Positions 5,297 to 51,862 of a stretch of 64,000 bases of DNA are shown here, piece after piece. Each line of letters begins with the position of its first letter. Position 1 is the first letter of the stretch. The notes under the pieces are model-generated. The model made no database searches. It was not told the origin of the DNA and saw only the letters and a list, made by a program, of their open reading frames with translations. Origin of the DNA: an uncultured bacterium (lineage in GTDB: Bacteria > Hydrothermota > Tepidihabitantia > SM23-42); contig CAYQPW010000008.1 of assembly GCA_964419565.1 (NCBI GenBank), positions 28,284 through 92,283 on the forward strand, given 5' to 3'. Both the position numbers and the translations under genes were made by a program.

Positions 5297-5369
5297 TAGC
5301 GGCGGAGGGATTTGAACCCCCGACACAGAGATTATGATTCTCCTGCTCTGCCAACTGAGCTACGCCGCC
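5297..5369 (-). tRNA. tRNA-Met (anticodon CAT). Elongator type, or possibly tRNA-Ile2 if the C34 is lysidinylated. CCA not encoded.
   Basis: Reverse complement GGCGGCGTAGCTCAGTTGGCAGAGCAGGAGAATCATAATCTCTGTGTCGGGGGTTCAAATCCCTCCGCCGCTA folds as a 73-nt cloverleaf: 7-bp acceptor, GCTC/GAGC D stem, GGAGA/TCTCT anticodon stem, loop ATCATAA, TTCAAAT T loop. It lacks the initiator-specific three G-C pairs in the anticodon stem. Confidence 0.9.
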
Positions 5370-20457: not shown

Positions 20458-20529
20458 CGGCCCCAACGGGAATCGAACCCGTGTCTCCACCTTGAAAGAG
20501 TGATGTCCTAACCGCTAGACGATGGGGCC
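20458..20529 (-). tRNA. tRNA-Glu (anticodon TTC), CCA not encoded
   Basis: Reverse complement GGCCCCATCGTCTAGCGGTTAGGACATCACTCTTTCAAGGTGGAGACACGGGTTCGATTCCCGTTGGGGCCG folds as a 72-nt cloverleaf with anticodon loop CTTTCAA. Confidence 0.9.
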
Positions 20530-30108: not shown

Positions 30109-30192
30109 GCCGGGATGGCGGAATTGGGAGACGTGCTAGGTTCAGGACCTAGTGCCTGAAAGGGCGTAGGGGTTCAAATCCCCTTCCCGGCA
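30109..30192 (+). tRNA. tRNA-Leu (anticodon CAG), long variable arm, CCA not encoded
   Basis: GCCGGGATGGCGGAATTGGGAGACGTGCTAGGTTCAGGACCTAGTGCCTGAAAGGGCGTAGGGGTTCAAATCCCCTTCCCGGCA is close to the E. coli tRNA-Leu(CAG) pattern. It is followed by the hairpin ATGCCACC-TTT-GGTGGCAT. Confidence 0.9.
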
Positions 30193-38799: not shown

Positions 38800-38871
38800 A
38801 GCGGGCGACGGGATTCGAACCCGCGACCCTCGGCTTGGGAAGCCGATGCTCGACCCCTGAGCTACACCCGC
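38800..38871 (-). tRNA. tRNA-Gly (anticodon CCC), CCA not encoded
   Basis: Reverse complement GCGGGTGTAGCTCAGGGGTCGAGCATCGGCTTCCCAAGCCGAGGGTCGCGGGTTCGAATCCCGTCGCCCGCT. Anticodon loop TTCCCAA. Confidence 0.9.
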
Positions 38872-46976: not shown

Positions 46977-47004
46977 TTGACTAAATAGATTTTCCATTTA
47001 TAAT
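46977..47004 (+). promoter_or_regulatory. Sigma70-type promoter for the riboswitch and TonB-dependent receptor transcript
   Basis: TTGACT (46977..46982), a 16-nt spacer, then TATAAT (46999..47004). Confidence 0.5.
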
Positions 47005-47011
47005 ACTCCAG

Positions 47012-47182
47012 GTTGGTGGATCCAAGGGAAGCACCGTGAGAATCGGTCGCGGTCGCCGCCACTGTGATTCTTTGTAAGACTCTGATCACTTAAAGTCACT
47101 GACGTCCACACACTGATCTTATTAGTGTCGGGGTTGGGAAGACTGATTAGAGCAAGATAAGTCAGGAGACCTATCCATCAAC
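47012..47182 (+). promoter_or_regulatory. Cobalamin (B12) riboswitch
   Basis: Conserved elements in order: GGTGG, AAGGGAAGC, CGTGAGAATCGG, GCCGCCACTGTGA, GGGAAGA, and a B12 box AGTCAGGAGACCTATCC. Closing P1 is GTTGGTGGAT (47012..47021) with ATCCATCAAC (47173..47182), including one G-U pair. It sits directly upstream of a TonB-dependent receptor. Confidence 0.8.
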
Positions 47183-47218
47183 ATCGCGAGAAAATCCTTC
47201 GGACGAAAGGGGGTAATA

Positions 47219-49174
47219 ATGATACCTTTGGCTTTTCTTGTCATACTCATTGCTCAACCGATCTATGAACTGGATGAGATCGTCGTTACTGCTACGCGTT
47301 ATCCTGCAGCTTTACAGGATGTCGCATTAGCAACGATAGTCATTGATCGGGAAGAACTCGACGAGTTCAATCCATCGAGTCTCACGGATGTTTTACAAAC
47401 ATACGCTGGTACTGATACCAAAGATTATGGTGTTCCAGGGACAGTGTCGAGCATATCTATCCGCGGCATTCCATCGAATGGCACACTGGTGCTCATTAAT
47501 GGTCATCCATTGAACTCGATAACCGTGGGGATGGCCGATCTGAGTGCGATAAATCTCAGTACAATCGAGCGTATTGAAATCGTTAAAGGACCGGTTTCAA
47601 GCTTGTACGGCGCGAATGGTCTTGGTGGTGCAGTAAATATCATAACAACAAAAGGTTATAAAAAGCCTGAATTCAAAATGTCCTTTTGTCCATCAACGAC
47701 CGATATAGATGTTCCCTTACAATCAAGAGAATTCTTTGCCAAACTGGGTTTACCAGCAGGTAGAATGATCTTTGACATTGCCGCAACATACGGTGCTTCT
47801 GATGGTTTCAGAGAAAACAGTGAATATACCGGCTATTATCTAACAGGTTCACTCGGCTATGAACTCGATAATACAAAGTTCATATCATCGCTGGTTTATA
47901 GTAATAGAGAATACGGATTGCCCGGACCAATGCTTGCCGATTCTACTTCCTCTTCTTTACTCGACCATGAGAAAGATGAATACCTTTTAGGAGATATAAA
48001 CATTTCATGGAACTTTTTAGAGAATTTTGCATGGGATAATACTTTATTTGCGGATCGTCGTTTTATCAAGTATCATACCGCGTATACGGATCTAAGTCAG
48101 GATACGCTGGAGAGTGATTATGATTACCTGACCTATGTTGTTGGCGTCAATTCGATCGCTCATTTTAAAAGCGGTAGGACTGATTTGACGATCGGTATTG
48201 ATACCCACTTTGACACCCTGGAAACGACTGAGACCCATGAGCTGTCGCGCGATACAATTTGGAATGCTTCTTCACATAATATCGGCGCCTGGCTTGAATT
48301 CAAATACCGAATAAAACATATTATTCTTGCGCCGAGCCTGAGATATGACCGGAATTCAAGGTTTGGGAATTTCCTTTCACCTGGGGTAGGTCTTATCAGC
48401 CCGCTTATTGATAATCTCTGGATTAAATTATCTGCGGGCAAGGCCTTTCGTGCACCGACATTCAATGACTTGTTCTGGCCTAATGCTGGCAATCCAGATC
48501 TTAAACCAGAACATGGCTGGGCATATGAATTACGCTTTGAAAGTTCTCCTTCACCGACGCTCTTCGCAGCATTATCTTTGTTTGCACGTTCTGTAAATGA
48601 CCGGATAGCCTGGCTTCCGGGCGATAATAATATGTGGCAGCCGCAGAATGTTAACCATATTTCAGTTCGTGGTGTGGATTTCGAAATGAACAAACAGATC
48701 AATGATTTCACAAACATTTATCTTGAAGGGTCTTATTTACAAGCAAAACAGAGAAACAATGAGATTACCTATGATTTTTATGATTGGGTAGCTGATACAA
48801 GCCTTACAATTATTGAAGAAGTAAAAAGAGATGCTGCTTTTACCCCAAAATATACGGCTTCAGCAAGACTCCATTTCAGTTTACCTTATGGATATGATTT
48901 TAATATCGAAGGTTTGTACGTCGCTGCGCAGGTCAACTATTATGTTAGTTATGATGAATACCCTGATATAACGATGGATACTAAAACACTCGATTCCTAT
49001 ATAATGCTCAATATAGGTTTTAGTAAAAAGGTCTTGAATTACCTGAAACTATCAGTCGGTGCGAAAAATCTACTAGACAAAGACCATGCGAAACAATTCG
49101 GTAATAGTATGACCGACTTGGATTATCCGATGCCTGGACGCCTGTTCTTTGCCCGGATCTCCATGGATTATTGA
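47219..49174 (+). CDS. btuB: TonB-dependent receptor, probable vitamin B12/cobinamide transporter (BtuB-like)
   Basis: Plug domain with a TonB-box-like DEIVVTATR and IEIVKGPVSSLYGANGLGGAVNIIT. A 22-strand-type barrel that ends ...FFARISMDY with a terminal aromatic. The riboswitch context supports B12 specificity. Confidence 0.8.
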   Translation: MIPLAFLVILIAQPIYELDEIVVTATRYPAALQDVALATIVIDREELDEFNPSSLTDVLQTYAGTDTKDYGVPGTVSSISIRGIPSNGTLVLINGHPLNSITVGMADLSAINLSTIERIEIVKGPVSSLYGANGLGGAVNIITTKGYKKPEFKMSFCPSTTDIDVPLQSREFFAKLGLPAGRMIFDIAATYGASDGFRENSEYTGYYLTGSLGYELDNTKFISSLVYSNREYGLPGPMLADSTSSSLLDHEKDEYLLGDINISWNFLENFAWDNTLFADRRFIKYHTAYTDLSQDTLESDYDYLTYVVGVNSIAHFKSGRTDLTIGIDTHFDTLETTETHELSRDTIWNASSHNIGAWLEFKYRIKHIILAPSLRYDRNSRFGNFLSPGVGLISPLIDNLWIKLSAGKAFRAPTFNDLFWPNAGNPDLKPEHGWAYELRFESSPSPTLFAALSLFARSVNDRIAWLPGDNNMWQPQNVNHISVRGVDFEMNKQINDFTNIYLEGSYLQAKQRNNEITYDFYDWVADTSLTIIEEVKRDAAFTPKYTASARLHFSLPYGYDFNIEGLYVAAQVNYYVSYDEYPDITMDTKTLDSYIMLNIGFSKKVLNYLKLSVGAKNLLDKDHAKQFGNSMTDLDYPMPGRLFFARISMDY

Positions 49175-49199
49175 CACCATAAATCATTTTGATTATACT
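49171..49199 (+). promoter_or_regulatory. Sigma70-type promoter for rnpB, overlapping the btuB-like stop codon
   Basis: TTGACA (49171..49176, containing the TGA stop at 49172..49174), a 17-nt spacer, then TATACT (49194..49199). The P1 5' strand begins about 6 nt downstream. Confidence 0.55.
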
Positions 49200-49252
49200 G
49201 ATATGTGGGGTGACTGGATAGCCGCTCCCACACTTTTAGGGAATAATGAATT

Positions 49253-49513
49253 ATGTTCTATGTCTATTTAATAAGAAGCAAAAAGGACAAGAGATTATAC
49301 ACTGGTTATGCTAATGACCTTAAACGAAGATTCAATGAACATAATTCAGGTTTCAACAAATGCACCAAGGGACGTGGACCGTTTGAGCTGATGTGTTATG
49401 AAGCATATGAAGCCAAACAAGATGCAGTACATCGGGAGAAAATGTTAAAGCTTAGAGCAAAAGCTCTCGGTCAATTAAAAAGACGTCTCCAATATAGTCT
49501 GGATATTCCCTAA
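49253..49513 (+). CDS. Small GIY-YIG nuclease-domain protein (86 aa) encoded inside the rnpB P3 loop
   Basis: MFYVYLIRSKKDKRLYTGYANDLKRRFNEHNSG... carries the GIY-YIG hallmarks (YVY...YTG, R, EHN). Confidence 0.8.
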   Translation: MFYVYLIRSKKDKRLYTGYANDLKRRFNEHNSGFNKCTKGRGPFELMCYEAYEAKQDAVHREKMLKLRAKALGQLKRRLQYSLDIP

Positions 49514-49614
49514 TAGTGTGGGAGAGGAAAGTCCGGGCTTCAAAGGGCAAGATGCTTCCTAACAGGAAGCCCCGCACCTTCTTTGTCATATGAGATTAGG
49601 GATGGATTATCGCT

Positions 49615-49848
49615 ATGCATTATGTTTACATTTTTAAGAAACGGAATAATGAAGAGATCTATATCGGTTGTACGAACAATCTCAAGAGAAGATCTCGAGA
49701 ACATAATGTCCACGGTATGAAGTGGGATTTGATTTATTATCAAGCATACAAGGCGCGAAAAGATGCTTACTTACGGGAAGAAAGGCTCAAGTATTATGGT
49801 CAGGCGCTTGGTCAACTTAAGAGGCGCATTAAGAATAGCCTTGTATGA
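49615..49848 (+). CDS. Small GIY-YIG nuclease-domain protein (77 aa) encoded inside the rnpB P9 loop
   Basis: MHYVYIFKKRNNEEIYIGCTNNLKRRSREHNVHG... is a paralog of the P3-loop ORF. Shared motifs are NxLKRR, EHN and the C-terminal ALGQLKRR. Confidence 0.8.
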   Translation: MHYVYIFKKRNNEEIYIGCTNNLKRRSREHNVHGMKWDLIYYQAYKARKDAYLREERLKYYGQALGQLKRRIKNSLV

Positions 49849-50167
49849 CAAAGAAGGTGCGGGGGGAAAGTGCCACAGAAAATATACCTCCAGCTACATT
49901 AGTGGTTGGTAAGGGTGAAATGGCGAGGTAAGAGCTCACCGCTTTAGTGGCGACACTAAAGGCACGGTAAACCCCATCTGAAGCAAAACCAAATAAGCCC
50001 CGTATGAAATGGCCCGTTTCTACTGCTTTGCAGTGACGGGGTGGGTAGGTTGCACAGAGCATAGTAGTGATACTATGCCAAGACAAATGGCTATCCTTGA
50101 CAGAACCCGGCTTATAGGTCACCCCGCTTGTTGGTTTATTCGGTAATTCCCGAAGAAATACGGAGGT

Positions 50168-51862
50168 ATGTTGACTGAGTGGGTGCCTAAGAATGAAGCT
50201 ATCGAGGCGAGTGATATAGAAATTCGCCATAAAAAGATCCCCAAACTCATTGTTCAAATTTTAAAAACGCGGGGTTATGATACACCCGAGAAAATAGAGA
50301 AATATTTTGCGCCGTCTTTGTCTGAATTACACGATCCGTTTTTATTGAGCGGTATGAAAAAAGCAGTGGAAAGGATAAAAAAAGCAATTGACCATAAAGA
50401 GAAAATATTAGTCCACGGCGATTATGACACTGATGGTATTACCGGTTCGGCACTCATAATCGAGAACCTGAGAAGATTCGGGCTCGAGGTTGAATATTAT
50501 ATCCCGAACCGGCTCATTGAAGGTTATGGACTTTCATCCGATGGGGTAAAGTATGCGATAGAAAAGAAATGTACCTTGGTAATTACGGTTGATTGTGGTA
50601 TTACCGCGATCCAGGAGATCCAGGAGGCAAAAGACAAAAATATCGATGTAATAATCTGTGATCACCATAAACCCCATTTAGAAATCCCTGATGCATATGC
50701 CATTCTCAATCCAAAATTACCCAGTGATAAATATCCTTTCAAAGAATTAGCCGGGATCGGCGTCGCCTTTAAAATGATACAGGGTCTATTAATGGATCTG
50801 GAACAACCGATTGAACGATCATACGATGACCTGGACCTTGTCGCTCTTGGCAGTGTTGTCGATGTCGTACCCCTGATCGACGAAAACCGCGTGCTCGTCA
50901 AGTACGGTATGAAAAAGATCGGTAAAAGCAAGAAAGTCGGTTTACAAGCGATGCTAAAACAAGTCGGTCTAAGGGGTGATATAACCGCATACCATCTCGG
51001 ATTTATAATAGGGCCAAGGATCAATGCATGCGGCCGGCTGCGTCATGCAGAAGAAGCCCTGGAACTCTTTCTGACCAATGATATGAAAAAGGCGACTGAG
51101 CTTGTGGGGAATCTTTCAGCTGACAATCAAGAGAGACGATCGATCGAGGGGAAAATTTATCGGGAAGCCAGGTCGATGATCGAAGAACTTGGCTATGCTA
51201 AAGACCGCATAATTATCGCGCAAAAACAAGGTTGGCATGAGGGTGTCGTCGGGATCGTTGCCTCGACAATAAGCGAGGATTTTTACCGGCCTTCGATCCT
51301 GTTATCTGCTAAAGAGAATGTTTTAAAGGGCTCGGCCCGGTCCATCCCGGGTATCGATATCACCGAAGGACTCAGTGTTTGTCAGGAATATCTTAGTAGA
51401 TACGGCGGTCACAGCCAGGCTGCTGGTTTGGAATTGGAAATCAGTAAAATCACGCAATTGCGTGTTTGTATTAATGAATATGCGCAGAAATTTGACGATA
51501 CGATCTTTACAAAAAAACGTTCTTATGATGCGCAGGTATCGCTCGATCAATTGACTGAAGATGTCGTATATTTCTTGAAGTATTTTGAACCGACCGGTTT
51601 GGCAAATCCTCAACCGGTTTTTTTAGGCAAAAACCTTGAAGTCGTCGGTGTACCGAGAGTAGTTGGCAGCGACCATTTGAAATTCGCGCTAAGGGATAAT
51701 AACAGAGTGCTCGATGCCATCGCTTTTTGCCAGGCTGGTAAGATCCTCGATATCGAGGTCGGGAAAACCCGACTCGATTGTCTTTTTTCAATATCCGAGG
51801 ATTCATTTACCGGCAAGAAAAAAACGACCCTCAAGATCAAAGAAATAAAGGTAAGTATTTGA
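50168..51862 (+). CDS. recJ: Single-stranded-DNA-specific exonuclease RecJ
   Basis: DHH motifs (ILVHGDYDTDGITGSA, ITVDCGI, ICDHH), the DHHA1 domain (GGHSQAAG) and a C-terminal OB-like domain. SD GGAGG. Confidence 0.93.
   Translation: MLTEWVPKNEAIEASDIEIRHKKIPKLIVQILKTRGYDTPEKIEKYFAPSLSELHDPFLLSGMKKAVERIKKAIDHKEKILVHGDYDTDGITGSALIIENLRRFGLEVEYYIPNRLIEGYGLSSDGVKYAIEKKCTLVITVDCGITAIQEIQEAKDKNIDVIICDHHKPHLEIPDAYAILNPKLPSDKYPFKELAGIGVAFKMIQGLLMDLEQPIERSYDDLDLVALGSVVDVVPLIDENRVLVKYGMKKIGKSKKVGLQAMLKQVGLRGDITAYHLGFIIGPRINACGRLRHAEEALELFLTNDMKKATELVGNLSADNQERRSIEGKIYREARSMIEELGYAKDRIIIAQKQGWHEGVVGIVASTISEDFYRPSILLSAKENVLKGSARSIPGIDITEGLSVCQEYLSRYGGHSQAAGLELEISKITQLRVCINEYAQKFDDTIFTKKRSYDAQVSLDQLTEDVVYFLKYFEPTGLANPQPVFLGKNLEVVGVPRVVGSDHLKFALRDNNRVLDAIAFCQAGKILDIEVGKTRLDCLFSISEDSFTGKKKTTLKIKEIKVSI

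Follow-up and report, generated by a model that had tools for sequence, protein, structure and literature searches.

How does a bacterial RNase P RNA gene come to hold two protein-coding inserts, and does it remain a ribozyme gene in doing so? RNase P RNA is among the best-studied ribozymes, and its gene, rnpB, serves as a marker of genome completeness. The rnpB gene considered here lies within a 64-kb stretch of DNA from an uncultured bacterium (the window, by which we mean this whole stretch). A preliminary description had read the locus as a type-A RNase P RNA gene opened by two insertions at the tips of hairpins P3 and P9, each carrying a same-strand open reading frame (ORF) for a small GIY-YIG protein. 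Here, we propose that rnpB has been colonised twice, independently, by miniature selfish elements that resemble the intervening sequences (IVS) of 23S rRNA and are co-transcribed with stable RNA genes, a reading to which we would assign a probability of about 0.75. The features on which it is built are collected in Table 1.

Judged from its sequence, the interval is a functional-looking, intact type-A rnpB that has been split by one insert at the apex of P3 and another at that of P9. Conserved regions CR-I to CR-V follow one another in order, the strands of P4 are present, and P1 and P2 close the structure; P1, P2, CR-I, P8, the ACAGAAA motif and CR-V occur in the canonical order at or near where the preliminary description had placed them. 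The promoter that it had noted upstream is borne out as well, and both hexamers are kept, with a changed spacer, in the close relative L109 (L-numbers are our labels for the relative loci compared with the window). The 3' two-thirds of the ribozyme runs without interruption and forms the well-aligned portion of the match to the Rfam model RF00010, with posterior probabilities mostly '*'. In place of an RF00010 score for a construct from which the inserts had been deleted, we compared this 393-nt construct with natural insert-free alleles. It aligns end to end with six of them, and RNAalifold, run on the construct together with the insert-free alleles, yields 108 consensus pairs, 29 of which show compensatory changes. 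When the entire 926 nt are folded, the minimum free energy (MFE) structure has P1 and the long helices of P3 and P9 closed (-314.8 kcal/mol, z = -8.8).

Two properties of the locus would suit a decayed pseudogene, a mis-assembly or a pair of self-splicing introns, the first two of which the preliminary description had itself named as ways in which it might fail. The gene is longer than usual by a factor of 2.4, and the intact sequence, scanned as that description had proposed, is aligned only in part, at 183 bits over 49774-50130 (model positions 1-367; gathering score 100 bits), with the 5' third of the match misaligned and P1-P8 of the model forced onto the tail of ORF2. A low score is to be expected, since two inserts of ~290 nt stretch the gene to 926 nt, beyond Infernal's longest relative span (703 nt); relatives with one insert score 245-257 bits. 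The conserved regions and pairings are all intact and covarying. The core is collinear with insert-free alleles (L107, L108, L110, L111, L112, L113 and L114; 361-462 nt) that score 202-284 bits, and in a pairwise alignment judged by eye it is ~96% identical to that of L109, with the ORF1 region differing more than the core (19 codon-level differences in 258 aligned nt, about 7%). No second rnpB was found within the window by the RF00010 scan. Six loci, in independent assemblies of different samples (two Joint Genome Institute metagenomes and four Logan runs), share the order TonB receptor, ORF1, ORF2, RecJ, which excludes mis-assembly, and the identical ORF2 protein is encoded on eight contigs. 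With regard to introns, cmscan of 49150-50180 returned, at E <= 1, no group I or group II family, nor any other Rfam family besides RF00010, and no extra partial RNase P match; almost no non-coding space is left within the inserts, the start codons lying 7 nt (ORF1) and 24 nt (ORF2) past the 5' arm. We give this group of explanations next to no weight.

The inserts themselves are discrete units. Each element is ~295 nt long and consists of a ~20-bp terminal inverted repeat (range 19-24 bp) with C-rich and G-rich outer ends and one ORF inside; at P3, rnpB is interrupted by a 24-nt inverted repeat that is 92% complementary (49222-49245 / 49504-49527). The preliminary description had bounded the inserts at 49235-49514 and 49591-49843. 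That there are two stands, and their limits move outwards: measured against empty or short alleles, the inserted DNA spans about 49228-49521 and about 49578-49856 and takes in the bracketing repeats, so that the repeats belong to the elements. Placement at P9 is direct, because the full-model Infernal alignments of relatives (L001, L003, L004, L005-L008 and L025; positions 1-367, 245-257 bits) each show one local insertion, 291 nt long, within the hairpin of P9. Placement at P3 follows from alignment with alleles (L001, L005, L114, L108, L111 and L113) whose P3 is GCTC-TATGT-GAGAG only. At both sites, the insert sits at the apex of a stable-RNA helix and its complementary arms prolong that helix, leaving the ribozyme core collinear and foldable, and both elements share the orientation of the host RNA. 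The 3' flanks of the two sites are alike (GGGAGAGGAAAGT vs GGGGGGGAAAGT).

The two arms of an element change together, a sign that pairing between them is under selection. Among the inner arms of B-type elements, the window, L018 and L021 differ by eight substitutions, every one of which is compensated on the opposite arm, and the inner arm of element A, TAGGG/CCCTA in the window, is compensated likewise in L001 (TGGGG/CCCCA). Across 53 elements of the wider family described below, an arm pairs with its own partner at 97-98% of positions and with swapped partners at 64% (outer nine) and 43% (inner nine).

Both ORFs match PF01541 (cut-off 22.6 bits), as the preliminary description had read them; NCBIfam and PHROGs gave sub-threshold, generic GIY-YIG matches only. 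A profile search of PDB sequences placed the UPF0213 protein BH0048 first (1ZG2, E = 1.1e-11), followed by EF2693 (1YWL) and then SLX1. The AlphaFold2 model of ORF1 (predicted local distance difference test score 92.5) adopts the GIY-YIG alpha/beta fold, and its nearest structures in Foldseek are 1ZG2 and the Slx1 nuclease domain (template modelling score 0.65, root-mean-square deviation 1.5 A), then I-TevI and UvrC. The proteins comprise the catalytic domain and one long C-terminal helix, with no DNA-binding module. The catalytic residues Y3, Y5, Y16, G18, R26, E29, H30, R61 and E62 are invariant in an alignment of 26 sequences. The ratio of non-synonymous to synonymous substitution rates (dN/dS) of ORF1 against its orthologues is 0.31 (L109), 0.11 (L001) and 0.08 (L005), and that between two B-type ORFs is 0.10, values that show purifying selection. 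Selection, invariant residues, profiles and model together argue that the ORFs encode functional proteins of the YhbQ/UPF0213-SLX1 type, predicted to be nucleases. The solved UPF0213 structures have been deposited as hypothetical proteins only.

In the preliminary description the two proteins were called paralogs. Their homology is clear (43-47% identity); conversely, a recent local duplication was rejected, as each is nearer to proteins of the candidate phyla radiation (CPR, Patescibacteria), at 63-66% identity, than to the other, with ORF2 66% identical to a Parcubacteria protein. The two inserts are thus independent acquisitions.

Table 1. Features of the rnpB locus, in coordinates of the window
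Feature	Position	Strand	Details
Type-A rnpB, complete, with both inserts	49205-50130	+	926 nt
Promoter-like TTGACA-17-TATACT of rnpB	49171-49199	+	11/12 consensus positions matched
P1 strands	49205-49214 / 50118-50127	+	Inverted repeat
P2 strands	49216-49223 / 50089-50096	+	Inverted repeat
Element A, tip of P3	49227-49522	+	Arms CCCACACTTTTAGGGAATA (49227-49245) / TATTCCCTAATAGTGTGGG (49504-49522)
ORF1, 86 aa, nuclease-domain-only GIY-YIG, YhbQ/UPF0213-like	49253-49513	+	PF01541 E = 8.7e-18, 64.8 bits
CR-I / P4 5' strand GAGGAAAGTCCGGGC	49524-49538	+	By sequence; invariant across 11 aligned rnpB alleles
P8 hairpin GCTTCCTAACAGGAAGC	49554-49570	+	By sequence; RNAalifold pairs 97-102 / 106-111
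Element B, tip of P9	49570-49864	+	Perfect 21/21 arms CCCCGCACCTTCTTTGTCATA (49570-49590) / TATGACAAAGAAGGTGCGGGG (49844-49864)
ORF2, 77 aa, nuclease-domain-only GIY-YIG	49615-49848	+	PF01541 E = 1.9e-10, 41.3 bits
3' two-thirds of ribozyme, uninterrupted	49865-50130	+	P10/11, ACAGAAA, P12, P13/14, P15-P18, CR-V, 3' strands of P2 and P1
ACAGAAA	49875-49881	+	By sequence
CR-V ACAGAACCCGGCTTA	50100-50114	+	By sequence

The behaviour of the elements among close relatives speaks for their selfish nature. Relatives share the synteny of cobalamin riboswitch, TonB-dependent receptor, rnpB and RecJ, and the search for rnpB loci with and without inserts that the preliminary description had suggested yielded both kinds. 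In the window and in L012-L017, element A occupies P3, element B occupies P9 and P12 is short. L109 carries element A with an intact ORF in P3, a 20-nt hairpin (GUCCGCAC-UGUG-GUGCGGGG) in P9 and a short P12. In L001, L003-L008 and L025, P3 is empty, P12 has no ORF and P9 holds element A, with the same arms and with proteins 78-87% identical to ORF1. L105 is also empty at P3 and ORF-less at P12; its rnpB core is 94-96% identical to those of L001 and L025, yet another element, of B type (arms CCCCGCACCTATGAGGTTATA/...), lies in its P9 (L105:395-690), a case of one element replacing another at a single site. L021-L023 have no ORF in P3 or P9 and a B-type element in P12, and no ORF is present at any of the three helices in L107, L108 and L110-L114. 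Outside rnpB, a B-type element whose protein is 73% identical to ORF2 follows directly on the 3' end of tRNA-Ser, before its terminator, in L018-L020. This comparison strongly supports the view that the elements are mobile and that they have been gained, lost, replaced and relocated among P3, P9, P12 and tRNA flanks.

Some alleles without an insert in P9 have long ORF-less P9 hairpins of 29-41 nt (L108:4985-5030 and L021:2413-2441). In several insert-free alleles P12 starts with CCCCGCA and ends in a near-complement (GTGCGGGG in L108, GGGCGGGG in L111), giving it a B-type-like appearance. Such helices may have been left behind by elements since lost, or may be favoured sites of insertion. A likeness to B-type termini (CCGCAC.../...GTGCGG) is already apparent in L109, at its empty-looking P9, and in L108, at P12.

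The preliminary description had suggested that the nucleases home into insert-less rnpB alleles. In its classical form this would make them site-specific homing endonuclease genes, copied by double-strand-break repair into such alleles only and each with one cognate site. GIY-YIG proteins are a known homing-endonuclease family, presence and absence are polymorphic at identical sites in close relatives, and the 3' flanks at P3 and P9 are similar. What survives of this proposal is mobility. Strict homing fares less well, because element lineages, instead of being confined to one site each, are shared among P3, P9, P12, the 3' flank of tRNA-Ser, tRNA 5' ends and intergenic hairpins; the proteins, at 77-86 aa, are a catalytic domain without a recognition module and are nearer to UPF0213 and SLX1 than to I-TevI; and the 10-bp target duplications and ORF-less derivatives seen in relatives (below) are traits of transposons. 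We consider classical homing unlikely.

To place the elements in a wider context, we examined a family composed of 80 GTDB loci, the best of at least 586 relatives in a scan that represented each GTDB species by one genome, together with the WOR-3 loci. The best 80 are overwhelmingly from CPR bacteria, as are the nearest named relatives of both proteins (CPR/Patescibacteria). A bracketing inverted repeat is present at 76 of 93 ORF copies (median length 21 nt), and the outer ends are conserved across the family as CCCC[C/T/G][A/C]AC...GT[G/T][G/A/C]GGGG, in the manner of terminal-inverted-repeat transposons. Seven of the 80 loci have their copy embedded in rnpB (L047, L093, L028, L099, L100, L052 and L025), every one in the sense orientation. 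The element lies in P3 in L047 and L093, flanked by ...gatcg on one side and aggaaagtcc on the other, and in the hairpin just past CR-I in L028; L099 and L100 have P3-type flanks like those of L047 and L093, and in L052 the RNase P match spans the ORF. The matches in the last three fall under the Rfam gathering score (L099:1771-2132, 78 bits, E = 6e-22; L100:1759-2242, 41 bits, E = 2e-9; L052:1175-1790, 53 bits, E = 2e-13).

Other stable RNA genes are also associated with the family. A tRNA or transfer-messenger RNA (tmRNA) gene lies within 200 nt of 30 of 86 copies; gene and copy nearly always share a strand, and the gene is usually 8-75 nt downstream. Some copies sit in intergenic hairpins. 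On a Saccharibacteria-labelled contig, three GIY-YIG ORFs alternate with tRNA-Ile, tRNA-Val and tRNA-Ala on one strand (L034:1078-2198). For elements of the CCCCTCAC type, the 10 nt upstream are identical to the 10 nt downstream in 16 of 19 cases and correspond to positions 1-10 of the tRNA of the same locus; eight different sequences are duplicated in this way. The repeat at the tRNA 5' end thus looks like a target-site duplication, of which there is none at CCCCCACACC-type copies. ORF-less hairpins form a further class. Those at L047:1937-1988 and L028:1887-1946 make up the P12 tip of an rnpB that already bears an ORF copy and share their outer 13-14 nt with the ORF-bearing copy of the same genome, resembling miniature inverted-repeat transposable elements; others flank an ORF copy in L075 and L098. 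They have the appearance of non-autonomous derivatives.

Several further observations concern the family. Elements of the CCCCTCAC type stand directly upstream of tRNA-Ala, tRNA-Val and tRNA-Lys in CPR genomes (L033-L098, e.g. L034:1472-1790, L048:1476-1775 and L044:1473-1780), and two copies occur within 3 kb in L055, L072, L074 and L088. GIY-YIG ORFs lie 130-171 nt from same-strand tmRNA genes at L074:2209-2928 and L104:1501-2272, and tmRNA may be a further host or neighbour of the family. At L081:1390-1830, a GIY-YIG ORF whose 3' end is overlapped by tRNA-Cys is preceded by an incomplete and diverged second copy of the 5' half of that tRNA gene; this is unlike the simple 10-bp duplication at other tRNAs. 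A scan of viral contigs returned 13 distant or partial relatives only (<= 48% identity over short stretches) and thus gives no hint that phages carry the elements.

Conserved termini, target duplication and non-autonomous derivatives are transposon-like traits. It is tempting to speculate that the units form an unrecognised class of autonomous bacterial DNA transposon, the sole protein of which is an ~80-aa SLX1-like GIY-YIG nuclease that reads the hairpin or cruciform of its own repeat. Such a class would have stable-RNA genes as its niche (helices of rnpB, 5' ends of tRNAs, where 10 bp of the target are duplicated, tmRNA and rRNA), would ride on their promoters and processing enzymes, would spawn ORF-less derivatives that remodel helices, and would have jumped from CPR bacteria to WOR-3. 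We offer this bolder proposal as tentative, and the odds are against it; we know of no GIY-YIG-only protein that serves as a bacterial transposase. If it were true, this organism would rely on an RNase P ribozyme that is naturally fragmented into three pieces.

A simple life cycle can be outlined for elements housed in this way. Transcription of the ORFs would start at the TTGACA/TATACT promoter ahead of rnpB and yield them as part of its precursor. Neither ORF has an evident promoter of its own: in 49050-50300, two weak 9/12 matches are found besides the rnpB promoter, within shuffle expectation, and the one at 49583-49610 falls within element B, immediately before ORF2. Most probably, RNase III would cut the long perfect helices, as in the ORF-bearing IVS of 23S rRNA; helix lengths are compatible with such cleavage, which would free the ORF RNA and divide the RNase P RNA into as many as three pieces joined by base pairing. 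The nuclease would act at the DNA level, spreading the element or maintaining it. In view of an SLX1-like fold in which a DNA-binding domain is absent, we propose that its probable target is the hairpin or cruciform that its own repeat forms, or comparable hairpins of the host, and not a long specific sequence. The B-type-like look of P9 in L109 and of P12 in L108 is consistent with this proposal.

Alternatively, the inserts may be retained, so that a mature RNase P RNA of ~926 nt would carry long ORF extensions on P3 and P9 and one transcript would serve as ribozyme and mRNA. P3, P9 and P12 are peripheral and vary in length (P3 13-48 nt and P9 15-41 nt in insert-free relatives), the MFE fold takes in both inserts, no sequence feature demands cleavage, and large extensions of helices are on record for RNase P RNAs of CPR bacteria (Lui et al., PMC8172020). 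Yet a perfect 21-bp helix and a near-perfect 24-bp helix are classic substrates of RNase III, as 23S rRNA IVS illustrate (PMC4990558). Furthermore, the stop codons of both ORFs lie within the 3' repeat arm, making translation and a closed helix mutually exclusive, and loss of the L9 loop together with about 550 added nucleotides might hinder folding. Retention is a possible outcome that we consider less probable than cleavage.

A different view would be that the small GIY-YIG proteins have been domesticated as host factors, for instance in repair or processing tied to stable-RNA genes, and that their location reflects co-expression. The strong purifying selection would fit such a role, as would the consistent sense orientation and the tight linkage to tRNA, tmRNA and rnpB genes, and YhbQ-like proteins are widespread as stand-alone genes of unknown function. 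Conversely, the elements bear the marks of selfish DNA: they are patchily present among close relatives, replace one another at the same site, can occur in multiple copies at one locus (L034) and have ORF-less derivatives. Many relatives function without any copy at the rnpB locus. Domestication is accordingly an improbable account of the locus.

Several points nonetheless weigh against colonisation by selfish, IVS-like elements. When arm mismatches were counted to compare selection at the RNA and DNA levels, those of G:T type numbered 27 and those of A:C type 23, a difference that does not separate the two; hence, the repeats could matter only as DNA. No target-site duplication is visible at the P3 or P9 insert of the window, unlike in the tRNA-associated relatives, so the mechanism of insertion may differ between subfamilies. 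An ~80-aa nuclease without a recognition domain is not known to have a mobility function. Finally, RNase III excision, retention, translation of the ORFs and ribozyme activity are all predictions.

The surroundings of rnpB are otherwise conventional. A cobalamin riboswitch (RF00174, 66 bits) at 47001-47192 lies directly upstream of a TonB-dependent receptor gene at 47219-49174 (Plug and beta-barrel domains), an ordinary B12-uptake arrangement that is kept in syntenic relatives. The four tRNA genes elsewhere in the window, at 5297-5369(-), 20458-20529(-), 30109-30192(+) and 38800-38871(-), carry no element. Elsewhere in the 64-kb window, there are no solo hairpins with element-type termini and, by tblastn, no further GIY-YIG copies.

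In full-text literature, with most subscription journals outside the search, we found no report of ORF or GIY-YIG inserts in bacterial rnpB, nor of UPF0213/YhbQ proteins as nucleases of mobile elements. Selfish ORF inserts that are bracketed by a hairpin and occupy the tip of a helix in a stable RNA are already known, GIY-YIG inserts in CPR rRNA among them. What appears to be new is that the host RNA is the RNase P ribozyme, struck twice in one gene, and that the host is outside the CPR. Also apparently new, from comparison of the loci, are the hopping of elements among P3, P9, P12 and tRNA flanks, the conserved termini, the 10-bp duplication at tRNA 5' ends and the ORF-less derivatives that seem to remodel P12. 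The host assignment rests on the RecJ encoded next to rnpB, all named homologues of which (56-61% identity) belong to candidate division WOR-3. Transfer of elements between CPR bacteria and another phylum is likely on sequence relationships, and an independent analysis has predicted GIY-YIG genes among those passed from Patescibacteria to other bacteria (PMC12455944).

These findings have consequences beyond the locus. The inserts explain why Rfam can under-score or mis-bound rnpB, at 183 bits in the window and under the gathering score at three CPR loci, and GIY-YIG inserts may be one reason why rnpB has been called missing or 'diverged' in CPR genomes. The locus is also a natural test of how much peripheral disruption, even fragmentation, a ribozyme tolerates. 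For the UPF0213/YhbQ-like GIY-YIG proteins, a likely role emerges from their genomic setting, as the nuclease of a hairpin-bracketed selfish element aimed at stable-RNA genes.

Comparison with known systems helps to define what is shared and what is distinct. With the modular homing endonucleases I-TevI and Seg, the proteins have in common the catalytic fold, the motif residues and a place in invasive DNA within genes of essential function; unlike them, they have no linker or DNA-binding domain, reside in no intron and are nearer to UPF0213 (1ZG2, 1YWL) and SLX1. Rickettsia palindromic elements and the STRR repeats in P12 of cyanobacterial rnpB are miniature inverted-repeat or palindromic elements that land inside genes. 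They show, as do the solo hairpins in P12 of L047 and L028, that hairpin repeats are tolerated in the helices of structural RNAs; the elements described here differ in being autonomous, with a nuclease ORF of their own, and in having termini conserved throughout the family. The diverged CPR RNase P RNAs of Lui et al. have extended helices and fall under Rfam thresholds, and ORFs go unmentioned in that account (PMC8172020).

The closest parallels are found in rRNA. ORF-containing IVS of 23S rRNA are known from Salmonella, Leptospira and Coxiella (PMC4990558), and the analogy that the preliminary description had drawn with them is apt. In both cases a selfish insert occupies the helix tip of an essential stable RNA, is bracketed by complementary sequences that extend the helix, may hold a small ORF and leaves a host RNA that is functional or, here, predicted to be so. 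Sporadic presence is likewise shared, as insert-free and single-insert alleles (L001, L005, L025, L105, L109 and L021) occur among close relatives of the window. The differences are that the host here is the RNase P ribozyme rather than rRNA, that the ORF is of the GIY-YIG rather than the S23p/23S_rRNA_IVP family, that excision by RNase III is proposed here by analogy, and that these elements have conserved repeat termini and, in relatives, ORF-less derivatives and target duplications. A second parallel is provided by insertions in CPR bacteria that are not introns, code for GIY-YIG proteins and lie in 16S and 23S rRNA genes (Brown et al. 2015, as cited by Tsurumaki et al. 2024, PMC11270868); the authors judged them not to spread by classical homing. 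As described there, those insertions share with the present ones their GIY-YIG ORFs, the lack of group I or II affiliation, a position at the top of stem-loops in poorly conserved regions and a scattered distribution, and it is mainly in CPR bacteria that the present protein family resides. They are described for rRNA only, RNase P RNA not being mentioned in the parts of the paper that we consulted, and the same parts make no mention of the bracketing repeats, site switching, 10-bp duplication at tRNA ends and ORF-less derivatives that characterise the elements described here, in a host that belongs to WOR-3 and thus lies outside the CPR.

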